Shown piece after piece: positions 2,851-8,203 of a stretch of 22,796 bases of DNA. A program made the translations under genes and the position numbers. Each line of letters starts with the position of its first letter. Position 1 is the first letter of the stretch. The DNA comes from a virus. Below the pieces are notes generated by a model, which made no database searches, was not told the DNA's origin, and saw nothing but the letters and a program-made list of their open reading frames with translations. The stretch lies in UHGV virus genome UHGV-0317022. One strand, 5' to 3'.

Positions 2851-2864
2851 GCAAAAAAGAAAAA

Positions 2865-2900
2865 CCGCAGACACGACGTATGCATGACGTGCTGCGGTTT
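2865..2900. terminator. Bidirectional intrinsic terminator between convergent tfa and GIY-YIG genes
   Basis: Imperfect hairpin CCGCAGaCACG...CGTGCTGCGG (2865-2897) followed by TTTATGCTTAT on the plus strand and preceded by an A-run (2853-2864), which is a U-run for the minus-strand transcript. Confidence 0.5.
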
Positions 2901-2919
2901 ATGCTTATCACTTAAAGAC

Positions 2920-3693
2920 TCAAAAATTAGGTGAGTAACGGACCGGGGACATAGCTCCTTTTTTTCTTAATTCATCTGGTATTTTTTTTCCAAGATAAAG
3001 ATTTGCTATTTCAGGTGGGGCTTCTCGACCTTCAAAACCATAGCGCGAACTTTGTGTTGCCTCAAAGTCAGGATCCTCGTCCCAGTATTTCAACGAAGGG
3101 AAATTTTCACGTGTTGATTTGAGCCATTTATCAGCAATGAAAACCCCTCGAACGATCCCCCTTACAGTAGCAAGAATGATTTCTGCTTGGCTGGCGCGAG
3201 AGACATTAATGCGCCAGCTAAATCGAACCGCATCATAAAGCTCTGAATCCTTTGCACTTCTGTTAACGGAAATCATTAATGCTTTATGATGAAATGTTAT
3301 GGTTTCGGGTTGATATGTTGCTATCAACTCTTTGACATGCGCGGCGCCGAATTCATTGCTGCCAGCACCATTCATGATATTCGTTAACCCAGGGTAGGCA
3401 TCAATAAGTGCAGCTTCAACTTCGTACGCCGTCTTTTCATCAGTCATTCCGTGTCGATGGATGACATGGATAACTTCAAGTCCTGCTAACCTTATTTCTC
3501 TAATTTGCTTTAGCTTGTTGCTCAGTAACTCGTCATCATCAGTCGCTGCCACTTCACCGCGCATATGGGCAAATACGCGGTTACCTTTGCCTTTCCCTAC
3601 ATAGAAGGTGCTTCCGTCCCTCGGATCAATCAATCGGTATACATACCAGCCAAGGTGTTCAATTACTCCAGAAGGAAACTCAGTAATATCCAT
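2920..3693 (-). CDS. GIY-YIG nuclease-domain protein (possible freestanding homing endonuclease or defense nuclease)
   Basis: N-terminal region [28 protein letters not shown] fits the GIY-(x10)-YIG motif with the following conserved Arg. The track ORF runs to 3744 but begins with a TTG; the first ATG (MDITEF...) is at 3693, which I take as the likely start. Confidence 0.7.
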
Positions 3694-3867
3694 TTTGCAA
3701 TATCTATGAATTATTTGTGAGACGTATATTAATGAACATTGCAAGGGCTCACAACCAGTAGTGTTGAGAAAACTATCGGGTAAATGAGGCTAATCCTTTG
3801 AATTTACATAGTAAAAAAGATACTTTTCCTCATAGTGTGAGCTAATTTTATGTTTCGTTTGATGATC

Positions 3868-3985
3868 GGACCGGTCTCAAAAACCGCAGGCACGTTGTAT
3901 GCAAGAACGTGCTGTGGCTGGCTGGTGAACTTTCGATAGTGCGAGTATTGAATGATTTCCAGCCGTTATCGATTTTACGTATTAA
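3868..3985. repeat. ~115-bp repeat element, copy A (hairpin plus conserved tail)
   Basis: AAACCGCAGgCACGttGTATGCAAGAACGTGCTGtGGcTGGCTGGTGAACTTtCGATAGtGCGAGTATTGAATGATTTcCAGCCGTTATcGATTTTACgTATT closely matches 5641-5760. The hairpin core is also related to the tfa terminator at 2865-2897. Confidence 0.6.
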
Positions 3986-4207
3986 TTAATGAACAAACCA
4001 CTCGTCAGCAGACTCCCAGGTATCTTTCAGAGTCTCCTGAACAAAAGCATTAGCAGAATCCTTATCTGCGGTGTAGGTAACAGGAAAATCATCGCTATGG
4101 TAGCTTTGACGCTCATCTCCATACCATAAAATATCAAGAGATTACGACTCATTTCCCCATGATTCTTCACCAACCAACAGTTCTATCAACATAAGATGTA
4201 AACTCAT
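3986..4207 (-). pseudogene. Small acidic ORF interrupted by an in-frame TAA (possible gene remnant)
   Basis: Minus-strand reading [75 protein letters not shown]-stop. I verified codon by codon that the internal TAA (4142-4144) is in the same frame as the downstream 52 codons. Confidence 0.3.
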
Positions 4208-4321
4208 AAACTAAGCAAGATAAAAAAATTAACAGAATTTTGTTGATTTCATGTCTGTGGAGTGTTAACTTAAAATGAGACCTGAAGTACTGAAGGTCTT
4301 TGACACACTGGAGAAGCAACT

Positions 4322-5530: not shown

Positions 5531-5556
5531 AAGGCACCTGCGGGTGCCTTTTTTGT
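5531..5556 (+). terminator. Rho-independent terminator
   Basis: AAGGCACC-tgcg-GGTGCCTT stem-loop immediately followed by TTTTTTG. Confidence 0.6.
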
Positions 5557-5640
5557 ATCCTCACCACCCGATTGGTGTTTTGCTGAGCCTGATAACTACC
5601 AATTTTTGTTATTACTATTCTACTATCGCTCAATCATGAT

Positions 5641-5760
5641 TGGCGGGAGTTGAAACCGCAGCCACGTCGTATGCAAGAACGTGCTGCGGTTGGCTGGTGA
5701 ACTTCCGATAGGGCGAGTATTGAATGATTTACAGCCGTTATTGATTTTACATATTTTTTG
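5641..5760. repeat. ~115-bp repeat element, copy B
   Basis: AAACCGCAGCCACGTCGTATGCAAGAACGTGCTGCGGTTGGCTGGTGAACTTCCGATAGGGCGAGTATTGAATGATTTACAGCCGTTATTGATTTTACATATT; direct repeat of 3868-3985 with a few substitutions. Confidence 0.6.
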
Positions 5761-5905
5761 TATGAAAGGATTAGCGCCTCCTCCCACCGATCCTCCATGG
5801 CTTTACGCCAGTGTCTCTAGGACTGCTATGTGCCAATAGGAGACGCTAGTGACATTATGCTATGTTAACGTATTGCACTAATCCATATTTCGATGGTCAA
5901 GATAT

Positions 5906-6376
5906 ATGAAAGTCAGTCAACTCAAAATCATATCTCACAATGATATATTACCTGCTCTTTTAGGAAGAGTGTTCCATGTTACGCCTGAAAATAATATGTC
6001 TCTCATAAAACAGTCCGGCGCTTTGATCCCAAACTCGGAATTATTGCAGATGTCAAGATTTGGAAACTCATCAAATGGTTTTTTCAGACGGCGTAACTGT
6101 GTTTCCTTTTTTGACTACAGATGTTATGGGACTAAGCATTGGGAAGAACATGCCTATAAATGTTTTCCAACTCAGTTTATAAAACATGTGCCTAATGATA
6201 GAATTTCAATACTATTTCTTCATGAAAGCAAATTCGATAAATTGATCCCCTGGACTGCATGGAAAGCAGAAGAGGCATGGAGTGATAGGGTGGTCCCATA
6301 CGTTGAAACTGGATATAAAGGCATAGTCTCCTTAAGTGAGATTACTGAAGAGTTAATTGTTGGGTTTGACTGCTAG
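5906..6376 (+). CDS. Hypothetical protein (156 aa), AT-rich gene
   Basis: Uninterrupted ORF in a visibly AT-rich stretch. No family recognised with confidence; the N-terminal RVFHVTPENNMSLIKQSGAL is only faintly reminiscent of ART/DarT-like N-termini. Confidence 0.5.
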   Translation: MKVSQLKIISHNDILPALLGRVFHVTPENNMSLIKQSGALIPNSELLQMSRFGNSSNGFFRRRNCVSFFDYRCYGTKHWEEHAYKCFPTQFIKHVPNDRISILFLHESKFDKLIPWTAWKAEEAWSDRVVPYVETGYKGIVSLSEITEELIVGFDC

Positions 6377-6480
6377 CAAAGTCAAAAAATCGCTAACGAA
6401 TGCAGAAGGTACCTACTTATGGACCGGTCTTTTATGGTCTGCTTGCCGCTATCTTTAGGCTCATTAAGTGAGACTTTTCG

Positions 6481-7899
6481 ATGACTCCCATTCCGTCTTG
6501 TGTATTCGATGTATATGCCTTATCGCTTCCCCGAGGTCTGGGATTTGGGGATGATCCTCCAGTTAGCGCTTGGGGTAGTCATGATCATGTCACAGTCTGT
6601 GCACTGACACGTAATTGTCACAGCGGAAAGCATGGCATTCTTATAATGCGGCGTCGTGAGGACGATGTATGGGCAGTGCTACGCTGGGAGTCAGATTCAT
6701 ATAGTGAAGAAGAGGCTTTCACAATTATACGTGAGGCATGCGATGAATCTGCGAGTCGCGTCCCTTTGCCTCCGGGTACACGCAGGCGCGCACCGCTTTG
6801 GGATGTTGAAGGTAGACAACCAAGTAACATATTCAAACTACTTGGACATCCTTGTAGAGCACCTGGCGCATGGATGCTTAATCAATTGTATCTTGCAATG
6901 CCAAATCCGGATACTCACTGGGCAAGAGAGTGCCAGACTGATAACTTTCATACACGTATTTGGGAAGCCATGCTCCTGGCCAGTTTCCGTGAGCAGGGGT
7001 TGTTAGTCACTCAGGAGTACCCCTCTCCTGATTTTCACGTAATAAACAGGTCAGGTGGAGAAGCCTGGATTGAAGCTGTGACAGTTAATCCATCGGACCG
7101 TTACGACCATGCCAGGGCTGAACCTCTGACGTTTCCTTTAAACCGACAAGACAGGGTATCGGGAATTGCGGCTGAACGTTATGCGCGGACCCTAAGGAAT
7201 AAACTGCGCAAGAATTACACTAGTCTCACTCATGTCGAAGGAAAGCCGTTTGCCATTGCTATCGCGGACTTTCACGCTCCCGGTTCAATGATGTGGAGCC
7301 GTGAGGCTCTAATTACCTATCTCTATGGATTTTATGGAAGAGAAAAAGAAATAGATGGGAAGGTTGTGGCTGTAGCAGAAACTGTCGACTGCCTCAAAAG
7401 CGACCCCAAAATCCGTGCTGGTTTGTTTAATTCACACGATAACATTGCTCTCTCGGCGGTTATTTTTTCTAATTCTGCGACTTTATCCAAGCTGAGCAGA
7501 GTACCTGTTTCTTCCGGCGCCTTGATCAAAGGCTACCGGTACATAAGGATTGGTGAGTTCGCTAATGACTCGGCGGGAGCCTTACGTGGCATCCCCTTCA
7601 GTATGGATGTAGCCAGTGACCAATATCGTCGTCTTTGGGAACCCTATAGTTATGAGCCATGGACTTCAGAAATTGAAATTTTTCATAACCCAAACGCGGA
7701 AAACCCTATAAATTCTACGCTATTTCCAGAGGCCACGCATTGGCTTCCAGTTAACGGTGAGATAATTTGCAAACGCTTTTTCAAGCAAAGCATTTTAAAA
7801 AGCCAAACCATTATTCAACACGCAGATGATCCAGTTCCTAATGCAAATAGCCTCACGTTTCAGGAAACTTATGAGGCAGACGATAAATTATTTGACTGA
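6481..7899 (+). CDS. Hypothetical protein (472 aa), function unknown
   Basis: Long ORF with an ATG start, on the same strand as and downstream of the XRE/ImmA pair and the 156-aa ORF. No recognisable catalytic motif by eye. The start codon is uncertain (internal Met candidates exist). Confidence 0.6.
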   Translation: MTPIPSCVFDVYALSLPRGLGFGDDPPVSAWGSHDHVTVCALTRNCHSGKHGILIMRRREDDVWAVLRWESDSYSEEEAFTIIREACDESASRVPLPPGTRRRAPLWDVEGRQPSNIFKLLGHPCRAPGAWMLNQLYLAMPNPDTHWARECQTDNFHTRIWEAMLLASFREQGLLVTQEYPSPDFHVINRSGGEAWIEAVTVNPSDRYDHARAEPLTFPLNRQDRVSGIAAERYARTLRNKLRKNYTSLTHVEGKPFAIAIADFHAPGSMMWSREALITYLYGFYGREKEIDGKVVAVAETVDCLKSDPKIRAGLFNSHDNIALSAVIFSNSATLSKLSRVPVSSGALIKGYRYIRIGEFANDSAGALRGIPFSMDVASDQYRRLWEPYSYEPWTSEIEIFHNPNAENPINSTLFPEATHWLPVNGEIICKRFFKQSILKSQTIIQHADDPVPNANSLTFQETYEADDKLFD

Positions 7900-8203
7900 C
7901 CTGCTTGATTCGCACAGAACGCTGTTAGCAATGTCCGCTCCTCGCTCATAACAGACATTAACTACAGTTATGGTAGAAGGTATGCATGCTGGGTGGGGAA
8001 AGTATGAAGGAAAAGAAGACTGCTGCGCCGTTTGTCGTCACATTTATCTTCATTGGCTATGCAAGTCATAATACAAGGTGGGACAAAACTGAGACACATA
8101 AGGCCTCACAATGGCTTGCAAGGCTTTACATGTTTTGATGTGGTGGGACGTGTGAGCGCAGTGTTGATGGGGTAATACTTTGAATTAGAAGCGGATTCTT
8201 ATA

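Follow-up and report, generated by a model that had tools for sequence, protein, structure and literature searches.

What fills the DNA between the last structural gene of a prophage and its attachment site, and which element owns it? This question is raised by positions 2851-8203 of the virus genome UHGV-0317022, of which the whole stretch of 22,796 nucleotides (the window) was analyzed. The window is Escherichia coli DNA, with 98-100% identity to several chromosomes, and the interval is the accessory segment at the right end of a lambdoid prophage in the tRNA-Thr gene thrW, in the position of the lambda b region. The explanation that best covers the whole, and that we hold with considerable confidence, is a prophage cargo bay whose contents are swappable and probably protect the lysogen. 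An earlier note on this DNA had described non-structural cargo of mixed composition, comprising an AT-rich nuclease gene, repeats, a decayed small open reading frame (ORF), a regulator pair and unknown genes, between a bidirectional terminator and a tRNA-derived attachment (att) core. All of these elements were found between the tfa stop codon and the att core, at or near the places it had indicated. The G + C content (GC) is 0.439 for the interval, individual features lying between 0.34 and 0.49, in line with a mixed composition, and the cargo proved largely defense-related, two of its genes matching the PADLOC profiles PD-T4-3 (E = 8.7e-140) and PD-T7-1 (E = 2.8e-69).

To the left of the interval, the tail fiber gene stf (230-2266) is followed by the tail fiber assembly gene tfa (2266-2850, + strand; Pfam Caudo_TAP, E = 4.6e-45), the last structural gene, which carries the same annotation in relatives. 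At the right end, a conserved non-coding attR arm (7930-8203) leads to a 48-nt att core (8204-8251, + strand) without a mismatch to either the 3' part of thrW or the attR of the prophage in E. coli NRZ106056, as expected of a core derived from a tRNA gene. Only one copy of the core is present in the window, and ARAGORN detected no whole tRNA there; the core is a 3' fragment established by alignment. In NRZ106056, the gene order of the complete prophage is proA, thrW, int, early genes, Q, lysis, terminase, head, tail, J, lom, stf and tfa, and tfa is followed by the cargo, the thrW core and the chromosomal LysR'/paoD (pao) genes, without a satellite. The corresponding part of the window is 99.5-100% identical to this genome, and the identity ends at 8251. 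Likewise, in the strains PSJ-23, MSB1_9I and CH4799 the cargo adjoins the thrW core and then the pao genes, again without a satellite. Since a satellite-free relative retains the cargo up to position 8251, the cargo is the prophage's. The thrW core is the attR of the prophage and doubles as the attL of the P4-like satellite that follows it in the window.

Slots, joints and the proposed exchange of cassettes

An alignment across related prophages, which the earlier note had proposed as a means of defining variable cassettes, was carried out by pairwise mapping and with annotated relatives. It resolved two slots (3903-5640 and 5846-7929) that hold alternative cassettes, and conserved joints at 3881-3902, 5547-5610, 5641-5845 and 7930-8250. 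Slot 1 is occupied here by a DinI remnant and a module of three genes encoding a helix-turn-helix (HTH) protein, an ImmA-like peptidase and the small protein orf49. In many other strains it contains a cytosine-5 methyltransferase and a type II restriction enzyme (PADLOC E = 3.8e-230 and 1.5e-233), and the homology to these restriction-modification (R-M) variants stops at 3902; the attR arm is 97% identical between the window and the prophages that carry them. Slot 2 holds genes for a 156-aa and a 472-aa protein here and an unrelated 321-aa gene in strain EC20. The interval is accordingly not a conserved, syntenic block with a morphogenetic function. The 321-aa gene (EC20 locus 10746-11711, + strand), which is also found in many clinical strains and is a further uncharacterized hotspot candidate, gave no match in Pfam, PADLOC or PHROG.

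The same picture was obtained from a census of 5426 complete E. coli genomes. CMoRE, the nuclease gene that follows tfa, was present in 821 of them and the attR arm, at a coverage of at least 80%, in 1019, while the three-gene module was found in 13 and the cassette of the 156-aa and 472-aa genes in 10. The whole island was covered to at least 80% in 4 genomes, all of them interrupted by the insertion sequence (IS) IS3. In e14-like and Mu-tail prophages, too, CMoRE comes after tfa or pin, and the cargo on its far side is a different one. The cassettes vary one by one and not as a single unit. No sequenced phage in the phage collection contained the whole island, the matches being confined to the three-gene module, a piece with dinI and the repeat, and the attR arm, which is 91.5% identical to the end of phage phi458. 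In PSJ-23, MSB1_9I and CH4799, the prophage is a remnant or of another, pin/e14-like type, and CMoRE, R-M and 156-aa/472-aa cargo is kept by attR, which suggests that decay of the phage spares the cargo.

The repeats of the earlier note were recovered at the joints. Positions 3881-3983 and 5653-5755 form a 103-nt direct repeat with 91% identity between the copies. Copy 1 consists of the dinI 3' untranslated region (UTR) and a minus-strand terminator hairpin, with the left joint of slot 1 formed by the 22 nt at its start (3881-3902), and copy 2 lies inside the conserved joint 5641-5845 between the slots. The first 28 nt of the repeat are the tfa terminator hairpin, so that three copies of this hairpin exist in total. 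In more than 200 lambdoid and Shiga toxin (Stx) phages, the 103-nt repeat adjoins dinI, which is the last gene before the genome end there, and positions 5760-5850 recur at 90-98% identity in ∼180 E. coli genomes. The decayed small ORF is a DinI-like pseudogene (3987-4119, - strand), annotated as a pseudogene in relatives, of which the C-terminal 40 codons remain and the N-terminal half and the promoter are gone; a tblastn search with DinI of phage PhiR63_1 aligned residues 43-82 to window positions 3989-4108 (- strand) at 73% identity. We infer that cassettes are exchanged by homologous recombination, with the conserved non-coding stretches as anchors. The bay would be rebuilt where such stretches lie, at the dinI 3' UTR/terminator repeat, in the 5547-5845 block and along the attR arm, and recombination at these joints would explain why the combinations of cassettes differ between prophages.

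The arrangement resembles the lambda b region and the moron loci of lambdoid phages, which likewise lie after stf/tfa and before attR, are non-essential, variable and of lower GC, and consist of self-contained units with terminators. The likeness to the b region drawn in the earlier note holds for position and variability and does not extend to gene content: Pfam revealed no match of the ORFs of the interval to Phage_lambda_Ea47 or other b-region genes of lambda (ea47, ea31, ea59), and the resemblance is positional only. Lambdoid phages of E. coli O157 carry type III effectors as cargo, whereas anti-phage genes are found here. A closer parallel is provided by the defense hotspots of P2 prophages and P4 satellites, in which a fixed slot also contains alternative defense systems depending on the strain (Rousset et al., 2022; Vassallo et al., 2022, PMC9519451). 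In contrast to these, the present bay belongs to lambdoid and e14-like prophages, extends from tfa or pin to attR at thrW, and has the dinI repeat and the attR arm as joints. Homologs of PD-T7-1 have been reported in both prophages and defense islands (Vassallo et al., 2022, PMC9519451).

The locus is of a known kind, that of prophage and satellite defense hotspots, and two of its genes fall within systems already described. The novelty is modest: this hotspot has been defined together with its joints, one gene model has been corrected, and two uncharacterized candidates have been singled out, of which the minimal ADP-ribosyltransferase-fold family is the more interesting. The hotspot is easily located in lambdoid and e14-like prophages at thrW, between tfa or pin and attR and usually with CMoRE first. 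Since its joints are conserved, a search for new anti-phage genes could cover this hotspot in many genomes, as has been done for P2 and P4.

Cargo genes and their probable roles

The nuclease gene next to tfa encodes CMoRE (PD-T4-3), a GIY-YIG type IV restriction endonuclease of 257 aa (2920-3693, - strand; Pfam LEM-3_GIY-YIG, PF22945). The PADLOC PD-T4-3 profile covers the whole protein, which shares ∼97% of 258 residues with CMoRE of E. coli O157:H7 (PDB 9U75, E = 2.9e-171). It is the same two-domain protein as that in PDB 9U75 and 9U7U, with a GIY-YIG domain and a modification-sensing domain, and shows no substantive difference from it. A longer ORF starts at a TTG codon at 3744, while the RefSeq start is the ATG at 3693; the 17 extra residues are probably not translated. 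The AT-richness ascribed to this gene is moderate, its GC being 0.435 as compared with 0.49 in stf/tfa. CMoRE degrades DNA containing 5-hydroxymethylcytosine (5hmC) or its glucosylated form (5ghmC) and spares DNA with cytosine or 5-methylcytosine (5mC) (PMC12923530). It confers direct immunity to T-even phages rather than acting by abortive infection (PMC12923530; bioRxiv 10.1101/2024.12.20.629700) and is active in a native clinical isolate (bioRxiv 10.1101/2024.12.20.629700). Given its identity, the protein encoded here would cut the 5hmC- and 5ghmC-containing DNA of T-even phages. As CMoRE spares 5mC DNA, it is compatible with the neighboring methyltransferase of the R-M variants.

The two unknown genes of the earlier note are those of slot 2. 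The longer one encodes a 472-aa protein of the PD-T7-1 family with a central PD-(D/E)xK nuclease domain and is intact in the window (6481-7899, + strand). Residues 113-446 align to positions 120-447 of the 452-position PADLOC PD-T7-1 profile, and the PD-(D/E)xK core was recognized by its fold, its invariant acidic residues and a conserved lysine; a PDB sequence search with the protein returned nothing meaningful. Its homologs adjoin Gabija-like and OLD genes. The protein thus resembles the single-gene systems PD-T7-1 and PD-T7-5 in a strong profile match over the nuclease and C-terminal regions and in the PD-(D/E)xK fold, whereas the ADP-ribosyltransferase-fold gene that precedes it is not part of the described PD-T7-1 loci. 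The RefSeq protein WP_000934335.1 (341 aa) begins at an internal methionine, also in genomes without an IS insertion. Since the 131 codons upstream of this start (6481-6873) are kept in homologs down to 50% identity, the RefSeq model is truncated at the N-terminus. Protection by PD-T7-1 has been reported for T7-like and T-even phages (Vassallo et al., 2022, PMC9519451), and from its family and fold the 472-aa nuclease would probably act against the same phages. The gene is disrupted in 5 of the 10 E. coli carriers by two independent insertions, IS3 near codon 24 (∼6551-6553) and IS911 in mid-gene. Such recurrent, independent inactivation hints at a fitness cost, and the disruption may reflect counter-selection.

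The 156-aa protein (5906-6376, + strand) represents an unannotated family with ∼670 cluster representatives. It gave no match in Pfam, PADLOC or PHROG, and PDB sequence searches with the protein and with its family profile yielded nothing meaningful. At the level of structure, an ADP-ribosyltransferase fold was found, the best matches being DarT, other ADP-ribosyltransferases of the H-Y-E class and the minimal ADP-ribosyltransferase-fold protein CC0527/DUF952. Across 41 remote members, H24 (FHVT), D70 (SFFDY) and E134 do not vary, and they lie on predicted strands. A putative NAD-site motif like that of the H-Y-E class comprises H-x-T in the first strand, VSFFDY as the aromatic strand and, where a late strand begins, an invariant glutamate. 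Based on the fold, the protein most likely ADP-ribosylates a phage or host target, and it would probably be co-transcribed with the downstream 472-aa gene. Membership in the DarTG toxin-antitoxin systems was rejected: the protein is shorter than DarT (156 versus ∼210 aa), Pfam DarT matches in the family were marginal (E = 0.03-0.085, in 2 of 26 and 2 of 41 members), and no gene for a DarG-like macrodomain antitoxin was present beside it here or in 8 other contexts.

Relatives of the 156-aa gene are located in cargo regions of prophages and satellites and on 9 IMG/VR viral contigs. In Citrobacter, Salmonella, Morganella, Thiodiazotropha and a P2-like metagenomic prophage they occur without a PD-T7-1-like gene, and an obligate partnership with such genes was rejected, as the gene is found alone in other elements. 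Distant PD-T7-1-like genes have other upstream neighbors, and a 143-aa neighbor in Burkholderia is unrelated (hhalign probability 0.1%). Within the present cassette, the protein might nevertheless work together with the PD-T7-1-family nuclease downstream. We propose, tentatively, that the gene founds a family of minimal stand-alone ADP-ribosyltransferases of the H-Y-E type that travel as prophage and satellite cargo and serve as single-gene anti-phage or anti-defense effectors. Two further neighborhoods were noted for this family: relatives lie near DUF2971 genes in two unrelated elements (Citrobacter and Morganella), and the Citrobacter relative is also near a homolog of lambda Ea47 in a prophage.

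The regulator pair of the earlier note, an HTH gene and a gene for an M78 peptidase, was found and turned out to be part of a triad with a 49-aa gene. The triad forms a portable module (4152-5550, + strand) that aligns as one block, with 89.5% identity, to the Lambdavirus Phi06_2987. It carries an operator-like palindrome, AAATTAACA-N6-TGTTGATTT (4226-4249), detected as an inverted self-match upstream of the HTH gene; the same inverted repeat, TCAACA..TGTTGA, precedes the HTH gene in all four genera in which the triad was compared. The HTH protein of the XRE family (119 aa; 4322-4681, + strand; Pfam HTH_31/HTH_3) is followed by a short Zn-peptidase of the ImmA/IrrE (M78) family with an HELGH motif (173 aa; 4690-5211, + strand; Pfam Peptidase_M78, E = 1.4e-09), whose homologs mostly have 170-185 aa. 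The third gene, orf49, encodes a conserved basic protein of 49 aa (5369-5518, + strand; PHROG 33859, E = 1.5e-26) that gave no match in Pfam or PADLOC. Between the peptidase gene and orf49 lies a conserved structured leader (5212-5368, + strand) with a hairpin at 5215-5245 (-19.5 kcal/mol), two more hairpins and an anti-Shine-Dalgarno sequence (ATCTCT) able to pair with the orf49 Shine-Dalgarno sequence, which the last helix of the leader can mask. In an alignment of only four leader sequences from four genera, both sides were changed in 12 of the 41 predicted pairs, a weak signal. An intrinsic terminator follows orf49 (5531-5556, + strand), with an 8-bp stem and TTTTTT (-20.2 kcal/mol, z = -4.3).

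The triad occurs as a unit, with unrelated neighbors each time, in elements of Klebsiella, Aeromonas and Pseudoalteromonas and in the Lambdavirus record, with HTH proteins of 116-119 aa, peptidases of 173-179 aa with HELGH, and orf49 of 49 aa. It shares with CapH/CapP, ImmR/ImmA and DdrO/IrrE the order of an XRE-type HTH repressor gene and an M78 Zn-peptidase gene with HExxH, and the similarity of the HTH protein to CapH spans its whole length (PADLOC capH, E = 3.6e-10, residues 2-116 against positions 4-97 of 103). The peptidase matches the capP profile at positions 56-147 of 242 only (E = 6e-11); unlike CapP, it has no GAF domain and hence no inter-domain groove for single-stranded DNA. Known CapH/CapP loci lie upstream of an immune operon and on the opposite strand, whereas the divergent neighbor here is the dinI remnant and the sole neighbor conserved across genera is orf49 on the same strand. 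As the GAF domain and the divergent architecture are missing, membership in CapH/CapP was rejected. From this analysis, the triad is most likely a stress-released repressor-protease switch that drives orf49. By analogy with ImmR/ImmA and CapH/CapP, the repressor of such a self-repressed switch would be cleaved by the protease, and the output would be orf49, whose ribosome-binding site would be masked by the structured leader.

The cargo is organized in several separate transcription units, marked by the terminator after orf49 and by a hairpin between the convergent tfa and CMoRE genes (2862-2900, inverted repeat I1). This hairpin folds on both strands, with -23.4 (+) and -24.9 (-) kcal/mol and z-scores of -4.7 and -5.0, and none of 200 shuffled sequences folded as well. 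A strong U-run, UUUUUCUUUUUU, accompanies it on the minus strand; that on the plus strand is weaker. The bidirectional terminator postulated by the earlier note is likely as judged from folding, its only support; a simple terminator scan did not call it. Rfam reported no family above threshold in 2851-8203, with sub-threshold hits to STnc130 and CssrB near 5520-5690.

Taken together, these results suggest that the genes are probably expressed from the lysogen and protect it, and hence the prophage, from other phages. Several points weigh against this interpretation. The defense activity of the island genes is deduced from homology or fold. The N-terminal domain of the 472-aa protein differs from that of PD-T7-1, as only profile positions 120-447 are matched; residues 1-112 do not align to profile positions 1-119, yet they are conserved within their own subfamily. 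As IS3 or IS911 interrupts the gene in half of its carriers, it may impose a cost or be dispensable. For the 156-aa protein, neither a conserved partner nor an antitoxin was detected, and it could equally be an anti-defense enzyme or an inactive fold. In the triad, the divergent gene order usual for CapH/CapP is missing. Finally, consensus scans showed no enrichment of promoters (8 versus 10.3 expected from shuffles) or terminators (7 versus 5.5 expected).

Among the alternatives, the one that survives best, though we consider it unlikely, is that part of the cargo serves phage counter-defense or host takeover rather than host defense. The 156-aa protein would then modify a host immune or transcription protein, like AcrIF11 or Alt/Mod of T4, and the HTH/ImmA/orf49 module would tune prophage induction. 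Small ADP-ribosyltransferases of phages and plasmids that act as anti-CRISPRs have been described (PMC12421852), and the 156-aa family is stand-alone, without an antitoxin and always in phage or satellite cargo. As to the module, ImmR/ImmA control the induction of their element, and the Aeromonas triad sits in the early/nin region of a lambdoid prophage. However, the triad is more than 25 kb away from the cI/cro region of the prophage in NRZ106056 and moves among unrelated elements; therefore, a role as an induction/excision switch of the ImmR/ImmA type is unlikely.

Less probable still is that the island is mostly decaying, non-functional baggage, as might be concluded from the dinI remnant, the IS disruptions of the 472-aa gene and the degraded state of the prophage in several strains. 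All ORFs of the window but dinI are intact and of full length in comparison with distant homologs, CMoRE is 95-100% conserved across the 821 genomes and active in its native host, and the cargo is kept where the rest of the prophage is deleted, all of which makes baggage an improbable explanation.

The junction with the P4-like satellite

The interval abuts a second element, and it could in principle be independent of the prophage. That it is an integrative island or transposon in its own right between prophage and satellite is very improbable. Its GC is below that of the flanks, the repeats 3881-3983 and 5653-5755 bracket part of it, and IS elements are near in relatives. However, the interval contains no integrase, transposase or recombinase gene and the window no second thrW core, lambdoid phages commonly share the dinI 3' UTR of which the bracketing repeat consists, and the cassettes vary independently. 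Although the interval directly abuts the satellite integrase and P4-like satellites, the present one with its PARIS system included, carry defense hotspots, it is hardly conceivable that the cargo is the left-arm hotspot of the satellite and not the lambdoid prophage's, given that the thrW core separates it from this integrase, that identity to a satellite-free genome stops exactly at 8251 and that four strains have cargo, core and pao genes alone.

The satellite itself begins with a tyrosine integrase gene (8416-9630), after which the P4-like satellite genes follow. Its AT-rich right end (GC 0.32) encodes PARIS (20321-22289, + strand), with PADLOC matches to the AriA ATPase (E = 2.6e-43) and to AriB/DUF4435 (E = 3.6e-22); a second defense hotspot is therefore stacked at the thrW locus. 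Tandem elements at one tRNA gene thus combine at least three known defense types within 22 kb, namely CMoRE, a PD-T7-1-family nuclease and PARIS, and such stacking is relevant to predicting the host range of therapeutic phages in clinical E. coli.

Three further features lie outside the interval. The 3' half of the tfa coding sequence contains a full-length match to Rfam IS009 (RF02111; 2609-2807, + strand; 225.7 bits versus a gathering threshold of 117). In the satellite, an int-alpA RNA motif (Rfam RF02996; 45.5 bits versus a gathering threshold of 35.8) is located directly downstream of the integrase gene at 9675-9742 (+ strand), and a protein with a ProQ/FinO domain (Pfam E = 3.3e-24) is encoded at 16622-17164 (+ strand).

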